From IMG/VR virus record IMGVR_UViG_2531839474_000011: a stretch of DNA of 8,076 bases; one strand, 5' to 3'. Numbering within the stretch: position 1 is the stretch's first letter; each line of letters begins with the position of its first letter. Under the pieces are notes generated by a model that ran no database searches, was not told the origin of the DNA, and saw only the letters and a program-made list of their open reading frames with translations. Shown piece by piece: positions 1 to 4,187 of this stretch. The position numbers were made by a program, and so were the translations under genes. Source of the DNA: a virus (Duplodnaviria > Heunggongvirae > Uroviricota > Caudoviricetes).

Positions 1-1284
1 TTACTTCTTCGCCTCTGCAACCACTTTACTACCCACGCCGCGGTTATTGTATTCCCACATGCGGTTGTAGTTAGTGTCATTCAGATTGCGCTGTATTTCG
101 TCGTTATCATCTACGCTGCCGGTATTACCCGCAAACGGACGATTAGAGATCACCGCATCGGCCCACGGTTTAGCCGTGTTAAAACCTTCGTTGATGGCGC
201 TATCACGGATCACCACCTGACCGTTGGTATTGGCATCAACATCCAGCGAGCGGCCCAGTTGCGCCACACCATCACCGAAAGCATTGAAACGGCTGTTTAC
301 GGCGAGGAAACCGTAGTAAATGTTGGACAGCGTAGCCGGTGCAAACACATACGCTTCTTGCTGAGTACGTGAGTTCACCACGCGGAATTCGGTGTTATCG
401 AACACCACTGCGCCGCGACCAGAAACGATATCCACATCCCCTTCAATGTAGCTGTTGGTCACCAGCGTACGCGGCTGACGATTTGTTTCCAGACGGTTCT
501 GCACACCGCTGTTGGTGACAAAGAAGGTGTTCTGACGACCGAGAATGTTAACGTTGTTAATCTGTACCTGGTCACCATCAGTACGCAGTGCCACCGCCGG
601 ATGGTTACCTGCATCTACGCTATCGCCCAGCGTGTTTTCGATGGTCAGATTTTGCAGTTGCAGGCCATTGTTTTGTGACCAGAAGACCGCAGAGCAGAGA
701 ACACCGATACTGTCGCTGCGTTTGCTCTGGCAGCTATCGTACATATACCACGCTGGTTTACCTGGCATATATTTGCCGCGCGGGTTGACGTCGTGACGCC
801 AGTCGGCAGGGCTCATGCCACCATCAAGGGAAAGCCCAATCTTCACATCAATCGGTTTTTCACCTGTACCGTACAGAGTAATTCCACCCGGAGCGGCAGG
901 GACATATACCGTTCCCTGATACTCACCAGGCATCACGGCAATATACTGGCGCTTGTTGGTACGCTTGATAATTGCCGCATCTACCGCCGCCTGAATCGTG
1001 GTATGCGTTACACCTTGAGTGCCCGCCGGGCCGACAACAAAGTCAGGTTGCGCAGGCAGGGTAATCGGGGAAGGATTCCACGCTGCAGCACCTGGTGTCA
1101 GGGATGCAAAATAGTGTTGAGCATCGAAATTCTGCGCTTCTTTTGCCGACAGAATCGGGCGAGAAGAGGTACCAGGCGCGGTTTGATCAGAAGGACGTTG
1201 ATCGGGCGGGGTTGAGCTACAGGCGGTCAGCGTCACGCCAAAAGCCAATGCCAGCGCCAGACGGGAAACTGAAAATGTGTTCAC
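1..1284 (-). CDS. ybhC: YbhC-like lipoprotein (pectinesterase-family, putative acyl-CoA thioesterase); host gene flanking attB-lambda
   Basis: Complete 427-aa ORF. GTG start at 1284-1282 with GGAG Shine-Dalgarno 7-8 nt upstream; TAA stop at 3-1. N-terminus MNTFSVSRLALALAFGVTLTAC is a lipoprotein signal peptide with lipobox LTAC. Recognised from memory as the gene on the gal side of attB-lambda. Confidence 0.8.
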   Translation of the reverse strand: MNTFSVSRLALALAFGVTLTACSSTPPDQRPSDQTAPGTSSRPILSAKEAQNFDAQHYFASLTPGAAAWNPSPITLPAQPDFVVGPAGTQGVTHTTIQAAVDAAIIKRTNKRQYIAVMPGEYQGTVYVPAAPGGITLYGTGEKPIDVKIGLSLDGGMSPADWRHDVNPRGKYMPGKPAWYMYDSCQSKRSDSIGVLCSAVFWSQNNGLQLQNLTIENTLGDSVDAGNHPAVALRTDGDQVQINNVNILGRQNTFFVTNSGVQNRLETNRQPRTLVTNSYIEGDVDIVSGRGAVVFDNTEFRVVNSRTQQEAYVFAPATLSNIYYGFLAVNSRFNAFGDGVAQLGRSLDVDANTNGQVVIRDSAINEGFNTAKPWADAVISNRPFAGNTGSVDDNDEIQRNLNDTNYNRMWEYNNRGVGSKVVAEAKK

Positions 1285-1330
1285 AGGTTGCTCCGGGCTA
1301 TGAAATAGAAAAATGAATCCGTTGAAGCCT

Positions 1331-1345
1331 GCTTTTTTATACTAA
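1331..1345. other. attL: lambda att common core (GCTTTTTTATACTAA); junction is attL (B-O-P')
   Basis: Exact 15-bp lambda core. Left flank GAAGCCTG matches the bacterial attB arm; right flank GTTGGCATTATAAAAAAGCATTGCTTATCAATTTG matches the phage P' arm. int lies about 80 bp to the right, as in lambda. Confidence 0.9.
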
Positions 1346-1425
1346 GTTGGCATTATAAAAAAGCATTGCTTATCAATTTGTTGCAACGAACAGGTCACTA
1401 TCAGTCAAAATAAAATCATTATTTG
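1346..1425. promoter_or_regulatory. P' arm of attL: IHF H' site and tandem Int arm-type sites P'1-P'3
   Basis: IHF-like motif TATCAATTTGTTG at about 1371-1383. Repeated arm-type-like elements GTCACTATCAGTCAAAATAAAATCATTATT at about 1392-1425. Overlaps the 3' end of int as in lambda attP. Confidence 0.7.
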
Positions 1426-2489
1426 ATTTCAATTTTGTCCCACTCCCTGCCTCTGTCATCACGATACTGTGATGCCATGGTGTCCGACTTATGCCCGAGA
1501 AGATGTTGAGCAAACTTATCGCTTATCTGCTTCTCATAGAGTCTTGCAGACAAACTGCGCAACTCGTGAAAGGTAGGCGGATCCCCTTCGAAGGAAAGAC
1601 CTGATGCTTTTCGTGCGCGCATAAAATACCTTGATACTGTGCCGGATGAAAGCGGTTCACGACGAGTAGATGCAATTATGGTTTCTCCGCCAAGAATCTC
1701 TTTGCATTTATCAAGTGTTTCCTTCATTGATATCCCGAGAGCATCAACATGCAATGTTGTTGGGATGGCAATTTTTACGCCTGTTTTGCTTTGCTCGACA
1801 TAAAGATATCCATCTACGATATCAGACCACTTCATTTCGCATAAATCACCAACTCGCTGCCCGGTAACAACAGCCAGTTCCATTGCAAGTCTGAGCCAAC
1901 ATGGTGATGATTCTGCTGCTTGATAAATTTTCAGGTATTCGTCAGCCGTAAGTCTTGATCTCCTTACCTCTGATTTTGCTGCGCGAGTGGCAGCGACAGG
2001 GTTTGTTGTTATATGGCCTTCAGCTATTGCCTCTCGGAATGCATCGCTCAGTGTTGATCTGATTAACTTGGCTGATGCCGCCTTGCCCTCGTCTATGTAT
2101 CCATTGAGCATTGCCGCAATTTCTTTTGTGGTGATGTCTTCAAGTGGAGCATCAGGCAGACCCCTCCTTATTGCTTTAATTTTGCTCATGTAATTTATGA
2201 GTGTCTTCTGCTTGATTCCTCTGCTGGCGAGTATTTTTTCGTAGCGATCAAGCCATGAATGTAACGTAACAGAATTATCACTGTTGATTCTCGCTGTCAG
2301 AGGCTTGTGTTTGTGTCCTGAAAATAACTCAATGTTTGCCTGTATTGCTTCAGTAATTGCTATCCTCCTGTCTCTGCCTAATCCGAACTCTTTACCCGTC
2401 CTTGGGTCCCTGTAGCAGTAATATCCATTGTTTCTTATATAAAGGTTAGGGGGTAAATCCCGGCGCTCATGACTTCGCCTTCTTCCCAT
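1419..2489 (-). CDS. int: lambda integrase (tyrosine site-specific recombinase)
   Basis: 356-aa ORF beginning MGRRRSHERRDLPPNLYIRNNGYYCYRDPRTGKEFGLG and ending ...HLLGHKSDTMASQYRDDRGREWDKIEIK. Matches lambda Int in length and sequence from memory; contains the tyrosine-recombinase catalytic region (HELRS...HLLGH...Y). Position is adjacent to attL. Confidence 0.97.
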   Translation of the reverse strand: MGRRRSHERRDLPPNLYIRNNGYYCYRDPRTGKEFGLGRDRRIAITEAIQANIELFSGHKHKPLTARINSDNSVTLHSWLDRYEKILASRGIKQKTLINYMSKIKAIRRGLPDAPLEDITTKEIAAMLNGYIDEGKAASAKLIRSTLSDAFREAIAEGHITTNPVAATRAAKSEVRRSRLTADEYLKIYQAAESSPCWLRLAMELAVVTGQRVGDLCEMKWSDIVDGYLYVEQSKTGVKIAIPTTLHVDALGISMKETLDKCKEILGGETIIASTRREPLSSGTVSRYFMRARKASGLSFEGDPPTFHELRSLSARLYEKQISDKFAQHLLGHKSDTMASQYRDDRGREWDKIEIK

Positions 2490-2685
2490 TTCTGATTCTC
2501 TTCAAAAGGCTACCTGTTACTGGTCGATTTAAGTCAACCTTTACCGCTGATTCGTGGAACAGATACTCTCTTCCATCCTTAACTGGAGGAGGGAATATCC
2601 TGCATTCGCGCACCCATCGACGAACTGTTTCAAGGCTTCTTGGGCGCCGCTGGCGTGCGTTCCACTCCTGAAGTGTTAAGTACAT
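2467..2685 (-). CDS. xis: lambda excisionase Xis (72 aa)
   Basis: MYLTLQEWNARQRRPRSLETVRRWVRECRIFPPPVKDGREYLFHESAVKVDLNRPVTGSLLKRIRNGKKAKS. ATG at 2685-2683. Overlaps int by 23 nt as in lambda. The 30-codon upstream extension in the ORF track is not used. Confidence 0.93.
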   Translation of the reverse strand: MYLTLQEWNARQRRPRSLETVRRWVRECRIFPPPVKDGREYLFHESAVKVDLNRPVTGSLLKRIRNGKKAKS

Positions 2686-2711: not shown

Positions 2712-2733
2712 GAAAAAACCGCATTGATGCGGC
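2710..2733 (-). terminator. putative intrinsic terminator (5-6 bp GC stem + T-run) downstream of the IS2-interrupted gene
   Basis: Minus strand GCCGCATCAATGCGG followed by TTTTTTCTT. A second perfect 7-bp hairpin GCCTCAC-ACTCG-GTGAGGC lies at 2769-2787 without a T-run. The T-run runs into the cII box of pI. Confidence 0.4.
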
Positions 2734-2851: not shown

Positions 2852-2892
2852 TAGACTGGCCCCCTGAATCTCCAGACAACCAGTATCACTTA
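2852..2892. repeat. IS2 left terminal inverted repeat (IRL)
   Basis: Imperfect inverted complement of 4142-4182. Confidence 0.75.
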
Positions 2893-2942
2893 AATAAGTG
2901 ATAGTCTTAATACTAGTTTTTAGACTAGTCATTGGAGAACAG

Positions 2943-3308
2943 ATGATTGATGTCTTAGGGCCGGAGAAACGCAGACGGCGTACCACACAGGAAAAGATCG
3001 CAATTGTTCAGCAGAGCTTTGAACCGGGGATGACGGTCTCCCTCGTTGCCCGGCAACATGGTGTAGCAGCCAGCCAGTTATTTCTCTGGCGTAAGCAATA
3101 CCAGGAAGGAAGTCTTACTGCTGTCGCCGCCGGAGAACAGGTTGTTCCTGCCTCTGAACTTGCTGCCGCCATGAAGCAGATTAAAGAACTCCAGCGCCTG
3201 CTCGGCAAGAAAACGATGGAAAATGAACTCCTCAAAGAAGCCGTTGAATATGGACGGGCAAAAAAGTGGATAGCGCACGCGCCCTTATTGCCCGGGGATG
3301 GGGAGTAA
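2943..3308 (+). CDS. insC: IS2 InsC (OrfA; helix-turn-helix transposase subunit/regulator)
   Basis: 121 aa: [56 protein letters not shown]... Start ATG at 2943 is preferred over the upstream ATG at 2898 given in the ORF track. Confidence 0.9.
3260..3266 (+). other. programmed -1 ribosomal frameshift heptamer A-AAA-AAG (produces the InsCD fusion transposase)
   Basis: AAAAAAG in the insC zero frame (gcA AAA AAG tgg = A-K-K-W), at the start of the insC/insD overlap. Characteristic of IS2 and IS3-family elements. Confidence 0.75.
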
Positions 3309-4171
3309 GCTTAGTCAGCCGTTGTCTCCGGGTGTCGCGTGCGCAGTTGCACGTCATTCTCAGACGAACCGATGACTGGATGGATGGCCGCCGCAGTCGT
3401 CACACTGATGATACGGATGTGCTTCTCCGTATACACCATGTTATCGGAGAGCTGCCCACGTATGGTTATCGTCGGGTATGGGCGCTGCTTCGCAGACAGG
3501 CAGAACTTGATGGTATGCCTGCGATCAATGCCAAACGTGTTTACCGGATCATGCGCCAGAATGCGCTGTTGCTTGAGCGAAAACCTGCTGTACCGCCATC
3601 GAAACGGGCACATACAGGCAGAGTGGCCGTGAAAGAAAGCAATCAGCGATGGTGCTCTGACGGGTTCGAGTTCTGCTGTGATAACGGAGAGAGACTGCGT
3701 GTCACGTTCGCGCTGGACTGCTGTGATCGTGAGGCACTGCACTGGGCGGTCACTACCGGCGGCTTCAACAGTGAAACAGTACAGGACGTCATGCTGGGAG
3801 CGGTGGAACGCCGCTTCGGCAACGATCTTCCGTCGTCTCCAGTGGAGTGGCTGACGGATAATGGTTCATGCTACCGGGCTAATGAAACACGCCAGTTCGC
3901 CCGGATGTTGGGACTTGAACCGAAGAACACGGCGGTGCGGAGTCCGGAGAGTAACGGAATAGCAGAGAGCTTCGTGAAAACGATAAAGCGTGACTACATC
4001 AGTATCATGCCCAAACCAGACGGGTTAACGGCAGCAAAGAACCTTGCAGAGGCGTTCGAGCATTATAACGAATGGCATCCGCATAGTGCGCTGGGTTATC
4101 GCTCGCCACGGGAATATCTGCGGCAGCGGGCTTGTAATGGGTTAAGTGATAACAGATGTCTGGAAATATAG
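3266..4171 (+). CDS. insD: IS2 InsD (OrfB; DDE transposase catalytic domain, rve/integrase core)
   Basis: 301-aa ORF in the -1 frame relative to insC, starting [20 protein letters not shown]... and ending ...[31 protein letters not shown]. The in-frame start codon at 3266 is GTG. Confidence 0.9.
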
Positions 4172-4182
4172 GGGCAAATCCA
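4142..4182. repeat. IS2 right terminal inverted repeat (IRR)
   Basis: Imperfect inverted complement of IRL; ends ...TATAGGGGCAAATCCA at 4182. Confidence 0.75.
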
Positions 4183-4187
4183 CTTTG
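4183..4187. repeat. IS2 target-site duplication, right copy (CTTTG)
   Basis: Identical to 2847-2851. Confidence 0.85.

Follow-up and report, generated by a model that had tools for sequence, protein, structure and literature searches.

The left end of a lambda-type prophage probably divides the promoter region of ybhC, with little apparent effect on ybhC expression

A close described counterpart of the locus analyzed here is the attL junction of phage HK022 beside torS (Carey et al. 2019, eLife, PMC6814406). In HK022, int faces outward and ends the series of phage genes at about 73 nt from the junction; the gene directly downstream is that of the host. Integration partly ablates a host promoter beside attB and leaves a second host start cut off by the prophage; in natural strains, occupation of the site is common. 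The junction between a lambda-type int and ybhC shares all of these traits. The two systems differ in other respects: experiments demonstrated a phage-borne start and strongly altered torS expression for HK022 (PMC6814406), whereas for lambda and ybhC no start is known in P' and arrays reveal no difference in ybhC between uninduced lysogens and non-lysogens. They also differ in occupancy, which is about 5% of genomes for the HK022 site and 35% for the lambda/ybhC site. A second point of comparison is the rise in expression of host genes beside the prophage, such as the gal operon, upon lambda induction, through escape replication and N-dependent read-through; there, transcription from pL proceeds leftward through int and attL into the gal-side DNA, of which ybhC is the first gene.

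The window, i.e. the whole stretch of 8,076 nt from the Caudoviricetes record IMGVR_UViG_2531839474_000011, holds at positions 1282-1440 a lambda attL (B-O-P') junction at the canonical lambda attB, as confirmed by alignment. As the left end of a lambda-type prophage adjoining E. coli ybhC, the region is ordinary. Read along the minus strand, the stop codon of int (1421-1419) is followed by the P' arm (1418-1346), the core (1345-1331), 46 nt of host DNA, and the GTG of ybhC at 1284. The 15-bp lambda att core GCTTTTTTATACTAA (1331-1345, given without strand; TTAGTATAAAAAAGC on the ybhC strand) was placed from phage matches and alignment. The BLAST match to phages has its first base at 1331 (lambda 27724), and positions 1346-1440 are identical base for base to the P' arm of lambda attP and the 3' end of int. 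From 1330 leftwards, the sequence is identical to that of MG1655; hence the B arm (1285-1330, minus strand) is the 5' untranslated region of ybhC. The core thus sits at the boundary between phage and host DNA, flanked by a P' arm (1346-1418, no strand) identical to that of lambda and by a host arm identical to that of MG1655, and is faced by the adjacent gene of a lambda-family tyrosine integrase. In the P' arm, a match to the consensus TATCAATTTGTTG at 1371-1383 is presumably the H'-type IHF site, and we take the repeats at about 1392-1422 to be the arm-type sites of Int; both were matched by eye and named from what is known of lambda attP. The junction resembles lambda attL in K-12 by its identical core and P' arm, by the host site between ybhB and ybhC, and by the orientation of int.

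The two genes that face each other across the junction are transcribed in the same direction. The ORF list gives an int of 356 aa (1419-2489, minus strand), identical to lambda Int at 353 of the 356 positions (99%), whose stop codon is 73 nt from the core, and a ybhC coding sequence for an outer-membrane lipoprotein of 427 aa (1-1284, minus strand), with a gap of 134 nt between them. The start codon of ybhC is the GTG at 1284-1282, in agreement with the annotation of MG1655. Its position is constant across 25 genera, the codon being ATG, GTG, or TTG in other genera, and the Shine-Dalgarno sequence GGAG, read from the sequence at 1291-1294 (minus strand), belongs to a GGAGC that is conserved in other genera. 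The first-pass annotation, which had put int directly upstream of ybhC on the same strand and the ybhC start 47 bp from the core, was correct on both points (46 nt lie between core and start codon, 47 if the first base of the GTG is counted).

Unlike lambda, the prophage of the window diverges to the right of xis. The xis frame (72 aa, 2467-2685, minus strand, ATG at 2685) occupies the place where an excisionase is annotated in related genomes. Just upstream of its ATG, on the same strand, we read TTGC-N6-TTGC (2698-2711), which we take, from the biology of lambda, to be the cII recognition repeats of the pI promoter. A sequence scan revealed a terminator-like hairpin with a T-run (GCCGCATCAATGCGGT, 2712-2733, minus strand) immediately upstream of pI; the hairpin found at the equivalent position in lambda differs in sequence. 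Further upstream in the leftward phage operon lies an IS2 of 1331 bp (2852-4182, plus strand), identified from its annotation in related genomes, flanked by a 5-bp target duplication CTTTG (2847-2851 and 4183-4187), and with its transposase on the strand opposite to int. It is missing from the corresponding place in the closest genomes. The closest relatives also lack the immunity region, and the closest complete one lacks the immunity/pL region. The outward -35 of IS2 is located in its right end. An outward IS2 promoter driving int was considered and rejected, as the left end faces xis and the hairpin with its T-run (2733-2712) intervenes.

Among 5426 complete E. coli genomes, 1919 (35%) carry the same attL junction, and 1921 carry an attR running from B' and the core through the P arm to tI. 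The adjacency of int and ybhC is therefore structural, not a matter of statistics, and represents a known type of arrangement that occurs often.

What the junction does to ybhC depends on the native promoter. The main transcription start of ybhC in MG1655 is at 806546, with 22 reads in exponential and stationary phases (Cho et al. 2014, PMC3923258, Tables S4 and S6), and falls in a region bound by sigma70 (Cho et al. 2014, PMC3923258). The published string TTTGTCTTTTTACCTTCCCGTTTCGCTCAAGTTAGTATAAAAAAGCAGGCT ends at the base that is position 1326 of the window (minus strand), 5 nt downstream of the core. A minor start at MG1655 806517, placed at window position 1297 (minus strand) by matching the 51-nt published string, had 21 reads in the glutamine condition (Cho et al. 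2014, Table S4, PMC3923258). The region upstream of this second start lies wholly within the B arm and the core and is thus retained in lysogens.

The comparison of 25 enterobacterial genera revealed a conserved block of about 38 nt that spans the core and consists, on the ybhC strand, of GCTTCCCGTTTCGCTCAAC, the core TTAGTATAAAAAAGC, and AGGCT. Another 10 nt upstream, a motif AACTTTTT stands at fixed spacing from the 18-nt B' part of the block. Mean conservation reaches 1.77 bits per column in the 18 nt of the B' side, 1.72 in the core, and 1.15 in AACTTTTT, against 0.16 further upstream and 0.51 downstream. The block persists where the upstream neighbour is a divergent hutI instead of ybhB, and it persists at distances ranging from 41 to 239 nt from the ybhC start, and therefore belongs to ybhC. 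Hence, a host promoter region overlaps attB and is broken by integration: the block spans the core and the mapped start is 5 nt away. Judging from the sequence comparison, the host DNA displaced by the prophage appears to be a genuine regulatory element, half of the ybhC promoter. This supports the earlier proposal that native promoter elements beyond the core are replaced in the lysogen, since the B' side is conserved like the core and the sigma70-associated start is just downstream. The core would carry the -10 region, with TATAAA or TAAAAA as the candidate hexamer.

The motifs themselves are of little help. In the upstream region of ybhC, whether native or from the lysogen, sigma70 scans with and without weighting returned nothing above shuffled sequence, and the candidate -35 is poor in both contexts (TTCCCG in the native one, TTTTTT in the lysogen). 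We counted these scans neither for nor against promoters; therefore, the promoter assignment rests on conservation and on one low-count set of start sites (22 reads). Supplements of a SMRT-Cappable-seq study have no ybhC entry. A by-eye comparison of the conserved block with sites for sigmaE, sigma32, sigma54, sigma28, PhoP, CpxR, and IHF gave no convincing fit. The weak consensus matches and the small number of reads leave some room for the view that the block is a host element of another kind, for instance a small RNA or a site to which a protein binds, with ybhC transcribed from elsewhere; the opposite shifts of ybhC and ybhB in a delta-rpoS strain also hint at more complex control. We consider this very unlikely. 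An Rfam search of the MG1655 intergenic region gave only chance-level matches, in genera with a divergent neighbour nothing non-coding upstream of ybhC is conserved besides the block, and the start, which falls in DNA bound by sigma70, coincides with the downstream edge of the block.

We thus propose, as the more probable reading, that lambda attB is the core of ybhC's own promoter and that a lysogen keeps ybhC at about the same low level, with read-through from the prophage only when int is transcribed. At the empty site, the block of about 38 nt would drive a low-level sigma70 transcript from the start 5 nt downstream of the core. Integration would leave ybhC with the -10 region, the start site, a 42-nt leader, and the minor downstream start, and would trade everything from about -20 upwards, i.e. 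the -35 and the upstream half, for the P' arm with its IHF and Int arm sites. The upstream half, still intact, would move to attR together with the second copy of the core, pointing into the P arm, towards sib and tI. In the repressed lysogen, ybhC would be transcribed from the hybrid P'/core promoter and from the start within the B arm.

This trade could also be costly. In one alternative, the removal of the -35, of the upstream block, and of any bound factor cripples transcription, and lysogens are in effect ybhC knock-downs. The displaced 18 nt are nearly invariant in 25 genera, with AACTTTTT at fixed spacing, which implies function; the block may be a binding site for a factor whose loss would matter. 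By a by-eye count, the lysogen shares only 7 of the 18 bases at these positions. However, the second start at 1297 is entirely on the ybhC side of the junction, and the presence of the junction in over a third of complete E. coli genomes indicates that any cost is tolerated. Expression data also argue against this alternative, which we regard as rather unlikely: arrays comparing an uninduced lambda lysogen with a non-lysogen show no decrease of ybhC (log2 -0.12, p 0.80; Osterhout 2007, PMC2147009). Steady-state ybhC is thus not altered in the lysogen at time 0 in the published lambda arrays, which are insensitive for a weakly expressed gene and concern wild-type lambda in K-12 rather than a prophage bearing IS2. 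In MG1655, ybhC is expressed stably enough to serve as a reference gene in qPCR (PMC3903629). A literature search combining ybhC with lambda, prophage, promoter, or regulon returned no study of its expression in lysogens. Altogether, the published data suggest little change in ybhC expression upon prophage insertion.

The same array values weigh against the opposite alternative, a promoter in the P' arm or the 3' end of int that drives ybhC constitutively and raises or rewires its expression, as for torS in HK022. This phage has a sigma70 start inside the prophage near attL for which its authors identified no clear -10 or -35 (PMC6814406); a negative motif scan is therefore weak evidence. The int-proximal 55-60 nt or so of the P' arms of HK022 and lambda are nearly identical, the lambda arm contains a perfect TATAAT at 1357-1352, and there is a 9/12 match, ATGACA-16-CAAAAT, at 1459-1432. 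But the TATAAT lacks a -35 at 16-18 nt, and where HK022 has its best specific candidate, TTGACT-17-ATTAAT, the lambda equivalent reads TGCAAC, with no usable -10. With ybhC unchanged in uninduced lysogens, we find a constitutive promoter of this kind quite improbable.

The remaining route from phage to host gene is transcription through int. The first-pass annotation had assigned the post-int terminator and the sib region to the other end of the prophage, and this holds: the lambda tI hairpin (27582-27539) is on the P-arm side of the core, so that, as in lambda, tI and sib lie past the core, on its P side, and end up at attR, and the 1921 genomes with a matching attR carry the P arm through tI. 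This layout, that of the retroregulation of int by sib/tI in lambda, is judged from lambda and from other genomes, the attR of the window's own genome being beyond the window. The search for terminators that had been called for revealed no intrinsic terminator between the int stop and ybhC, P' arm included, when scanning for compact GC-rich hairpins with a U-tract; the scan did detect lambda tI, used as positive control (-19.6 kcal/mol). The gap, which is A/U-rich and free of C-over-G bias, yielded nothing but extended A/U-rich structures whose tails are poor. The long hairpin GUUCGUUG...CAACGGAU with its U-rich stretch was rejected as an attL-specific terminator because its stem is interrupted and A/U-rich and its tail is poor; the inner palindrome also occurs in attP, where pI transcripts run on to tI.

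With tI and sib at the other end and no terminator in between, read-through from int into ybhC is physically possible, though at most transient. The contribution of int would come from pL transcripts antiterminated by N, in the interval between induction and excision, or for a short time from pI transcripts. That ybhC mRNA in the lysogen stems mainly from read-through is a reading to which we give very little weight, despite the two co-directional genes, the short A/U-rich gap, and the absence of tI and sib from attL. While the lysogen is repressed, pL is silent, and pI requires cII. In this prophage, moreover, the hairpin with its T-run and IS2 lie upstream of xis and int, and the nearest relative lacks the pL region. 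After induction of a lambda lysogen, ybhC does rise, by log2 +1.26 at 40 min and +1.63 at 60 min, i.e. about 2.4- and 3.1-fold, together with its neighbours, as in the enhancement of gal-side genes (PMC2147009). Unlike in the gal case, this rise does not exceed that of neighbours on both sides, including the bio-side genes ybhB and uvrB across the prophage, and no effect specific to ybhC was reported; the authors credit the rise of prophage neighbours mainly to escape replication and gene dosage (PMC2147009). Gal-side host genes remain induced with a replication-defective lambda (PMC2147009, Table 2), which favours read-through, but ybhC is absent from the genes listed as still induced with this phage (PMC2147009). 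The earlier suggestion that int transcripts read into ybhC thus stands as regards the open path, and finds no significant effect in the lambda arrays. Likewise, the expectation that ybhC abundance differs between lysogen and non-lysogen is not borne out before induction, and after induction the increase stays within that of its neighbours.

A more tentative extension of the preferred reading, which we consider possible but a good deal less probable than the reading itself, concerns both copies of the core and, with them, the duplicated -10 region. The activity of the hybrid ybhC promoter could follow the occupancy of the P' arm by IHF and Int, and hence the state of the prophage. The host promoter rebuilt at attR would fire into the P arm, where tI and the RNase III site of sib would block host transcription from entering the prophage. 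If so, tI and sib would gain a second role in the lysogen, as an insulator, and ybhC would read out the occupancy of the attL intasome in about one third of E. coli strains.

Given the frequency of the junction, two versions of the region upstream of ybhC coexist in nature. Were the expression of ybhC to change with the swap, this would amount to a regulatory polymorphism that depends on a prophage, as for HK022 and torS, and a very common one; to judge from the available data, the effect is small. Of greater use is the coincidence between the classical lambda attachment site and the -10/start region of what is probably a conserved host promoter, which would explain the conservation of the site across Enterobacteriaceae. 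Many constructs integrated at the lambda attB would likewise sever ybhC from the upstream half of its promoter.

The junction in the window has the anatomy of textbook lambda. On the minus strand lie xis (2685-2467), int (2489-1419), a non-coding stretch between int and ybhC (1418-1285), and ybhC itself (1284-1). When the window is aligned with both MG1655 and lambda, the common core GCTTTTTTATACTAA falls at 1331-1345; 1346-1440 matches the P' arm and int 3' end of lambda base for base, and from 1330 leftwards the sequence is identical to the MG1655 DNA upstream of ybhC. The BLAST match to phage genomes opens exactly at 1331, which is lambda 27724, the annotated recombination core, and the integrase is identical to lambda Int at 353 of 356 positions. 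Therefore, the junction is the attL (B-O-P') of a prophage with a lambda integration module, inserted between ybhB and ybhC, lambda's canonical site. This confirms the junction described in the first-pass annotation, whose positions and spacings hold: ybhC begins with GTG (1284-1282), 46 nt from the core, and int, on the same strand as ybhC, stops 73 nt short of the core. Over 1331-1364, the T-tract of the core and the A-tract of P' form an A/T-rich inverted repeat, GCTTTTTTATA ... TATAAAAAAGC, carried by both attP and attL and giving a 12-bp hairpin in either transcript.

Among ybhC loci of 80 species, we compared the core-anchored upstream regions of 25 genus-level representatives. They have in common, on the ybhC strand, the block AACTTTTT - N10 - CTTCCCGTTTCGCTCAAC / TTAGTATAAAAAAGC / AGGCT. 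Information content averages 1.77 bits per column in the 18 B' nt next to the core, 1.72 in the core and 1.15 in the AACTTTTT motif; it is 0.16 further upstream and 0.51 further downstream. The block is retained with either upstream neighbour, co-directional ybhB or divergent hutI (Salmonella), and whether the ybhC start is 41 or 239 nt away. Because it is kept despite these differences in neighbour and distance, it belongs to ybhC. The lambda attB (core, 18 nt of B' and AGGCT; positions 3328-3378 of our MG1655 locus) is a nearly invariant non-coding sequence in about 25 genera of Enterobacteriaceae. The AACTTTTT motif lies upstream of it at a fixed spacing, and the would-be -35 position in between varies.

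Start-site mapping in MG1655 gave three ybhC starts (Cho et al. 2014, PMC3923258). The one at 806546 (22 reads, exponential and stationary phase) is within a sigma70-bound region, with a sigma70 motif called; it is the last T of the 51-nt string TTTGTCTTTTTACCTTCCCGTTTCGCTCAAGTTAGTATAAAAAAGCAGGCT and corresponds to window 1326, which lies 5 nt past the core towards ybhC. A second, at 806517 (21 reads from one condition), corresponds to window 1297, wholly on the ybhC side, and the third falls within ybhB. On the basis of the conservation and the mapped start, we assign the -10 region of ybhC's main promoter to the lambda core, where the hexamer would be TATAAA or TAAAAA, and its -35 or upstream half to B'. 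In consensus scans of the native and lysogen upstream regions neither scores above shuffled sequence, so the ybhC promoter is invisible to such scans alone. Expression of ybhC is steady enough in MG1655 for use as a qPCR reference gene (PMC3903629).

In the lysogen, ybhC retains the core with its -10 region, the start site, the leader and the minor start, and all DNA upstream of the core is P' DNA: the native CTTCCCGTTTCGCTCAAG is exchanged for CTTTTTTATAATGCCAAC, with 7 of 18 bases in common by our own count. The promoter replacement proposed in the first-pass annotation is real, and conservation and the mapped start ground it better than its author could know. The displaced upstream half is held by attR with its own copy of the core; a synthetic attR query (B'-core-P arm through tI, built from the MG1655 and lambda loci) was covered in 1921 genomes. 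A complete host promoter rebuilt there would point into the P arm towards sib/tI, and tI, some 140-190 nt from the core in the P direction, may shield the prophage from that promoter.

This configuration is ordinary. Using 171-nt junction queries and a coverage of at least 80%, we found the attL junction in 1919 of 5426 complete E. coli genomes (35%) and the empty attB in 3489 (64%). E. albertii and other Escherichia species show the same geometry, as does Salmonella enterica subsp. arizonae (L013, 2007-2500), where the prophage uses this 15-bp core, also in this orientation, with an integrase whose aligned part has only 34% identity to lambda Int. In the arizonae locus about 137 nt separate the integrase from the ybhC start, the P' arm likewise opens with TGCTTTTTTAT, and an IHF-like site in P' contains AACTTTTT. 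A 632-bp sequence from a Streptosporangium vulgare assembly (NZ_JBHMBS010000150.1), 99% identical to E. coli ybhC and the attB upstream region, is almost certainly E. coli contamination.

The first-pass annotation also held that int transcripts from pI or pL could read into ybhC. A simple scan revealed no terminator on the minus strand over 1100-2700, and a hairpin-plus-U-tract scan of 1470-1240, which recovered lambda tI at -19.6 kcal/mol as positive control, yielded nothing but long, A/U-rich structures whose tails are poor. In the most stable local fold the A-tract of P' pairs with the T-tract of the core; the palindrome they form is also present in attP, where pI transcripts continue through to tI. 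The 134-nt gap between int and ybhC is A/U-rich and free of C-over-G bias. Read-through would be structurally unimpeded, to judge from the sequence, because no terminator was found in the gap and pI transcripts pass the palindrome in attP; tI and sib are, as previously proposed, at the other prophage end. While a lysogen is repressed, pL is silent and pI depends on cII.

The cII recognition repeats of pI, TTGC-N6-TTGC, are intact (2711-2698), with a terminator-like hairpin and T-run directly upstream of them (2733-2712, minus strand). Since lambda (L001, 1810-1829) has a hairpin at the same place with another stem (GCCGCATCAATGCGGT in the window, AAGCCGCCTGATGGCGGTTT in lambda), it is the structure that is kept, not the sequence. 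A complete IS2 of 1331 bp (2852-4182), flanked by a 5-bp target duplication, CTTTG, at 2847-2851 and 4183-4187, breaks a small phage ORF upstream of xis, its transposase antisense to the leftward phage operon. It is a recent insertion, since it is absent at this position from the closest complete genomes, which are 99.3-99.4% identical. In one of these relatives (NZ_CP148323.1) the prophage goes from gam straight to a ren fragment, emrE and ybcK, without kil, cIII and the immunity region (N, cI, cro, cII, O, P), and is a defective, DLP12-like hybrid. The window stops within bet; should its prophage share this deletion, int could never be driven by pL or by cII-activated pI.

A literature search returned no paper on ybhC expression in lysogens. 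Arrays comparing a lambda lysogen with a non-lysogen after UV induction (Osterhout et al. 2007, PMC2147009, Table S4) give log2 ratios for ybhC of -0.12 at 0 min (p 0.80), -0.65 at 20 min (p 0.21), +1.26 at 40 min (p 0.0097) and +1.63 at 60 min (p 0.0006), on a platform that has little sensitivity for weakly expressed genes and compares abundance, not start sites. Genes flanking ybhC in either direction show a similar or larger rise (ybhB, +1.35 at 60 min; ybhD, +2.65 and +2.40), a regional increase that the authors put down for the most part to escape replication. When the phage is replication-defective, gal-side ybhD, b0770-b0771 and modB remain up, and ybhC is absent from the list (PMC2147009). 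These data indicate that a lambda prophage has no steady-state effect on ybhC and that the rise upon induction is modest and non-specific. For the uninduced state they come close, for abundance only, to what the first-pass annotation named as speaking against its reading. Of that reading, promoter replacement and the physical possibility of read-through stand, but the arrays show no steady-state consequence and only a modest induced rise.

The closest functional precedent is the attL of HK022 upstream of torS, where the host promoter adjoining attB is ablated, a sigma70 start lies inside the prophage, without recognisable -10 or -35 according to the authors, and torS is up-regulated (PMC6814406). 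Over roughly the int-proximal 55-60 nt, the P' arm of HK022 is nearly identical to that of lambda. At the position of the best HK022 candidate, TTGACT-17-ATTAAT, lambda has no usable -10. The ybhC case joins a known phenomenon, the overlap of a phage attachment site with a host promoter. In stationary-phase delta-rpoS cells, ybhC is about 5-fold up (log2 6.3 to 8.7) and its upstream neighbour ybhB about 5-fold down (9.4 to 7.2), with bioA and ybhJ constant (Table S7, PMC3923258). A possible cause of these opposite shifts is read-through from ybhB that interferes with the ybhC promoter; another is competition between sigma factors. With a prophage between them, ybhB and ybhC (b0773/b0772) would be uncoupled.
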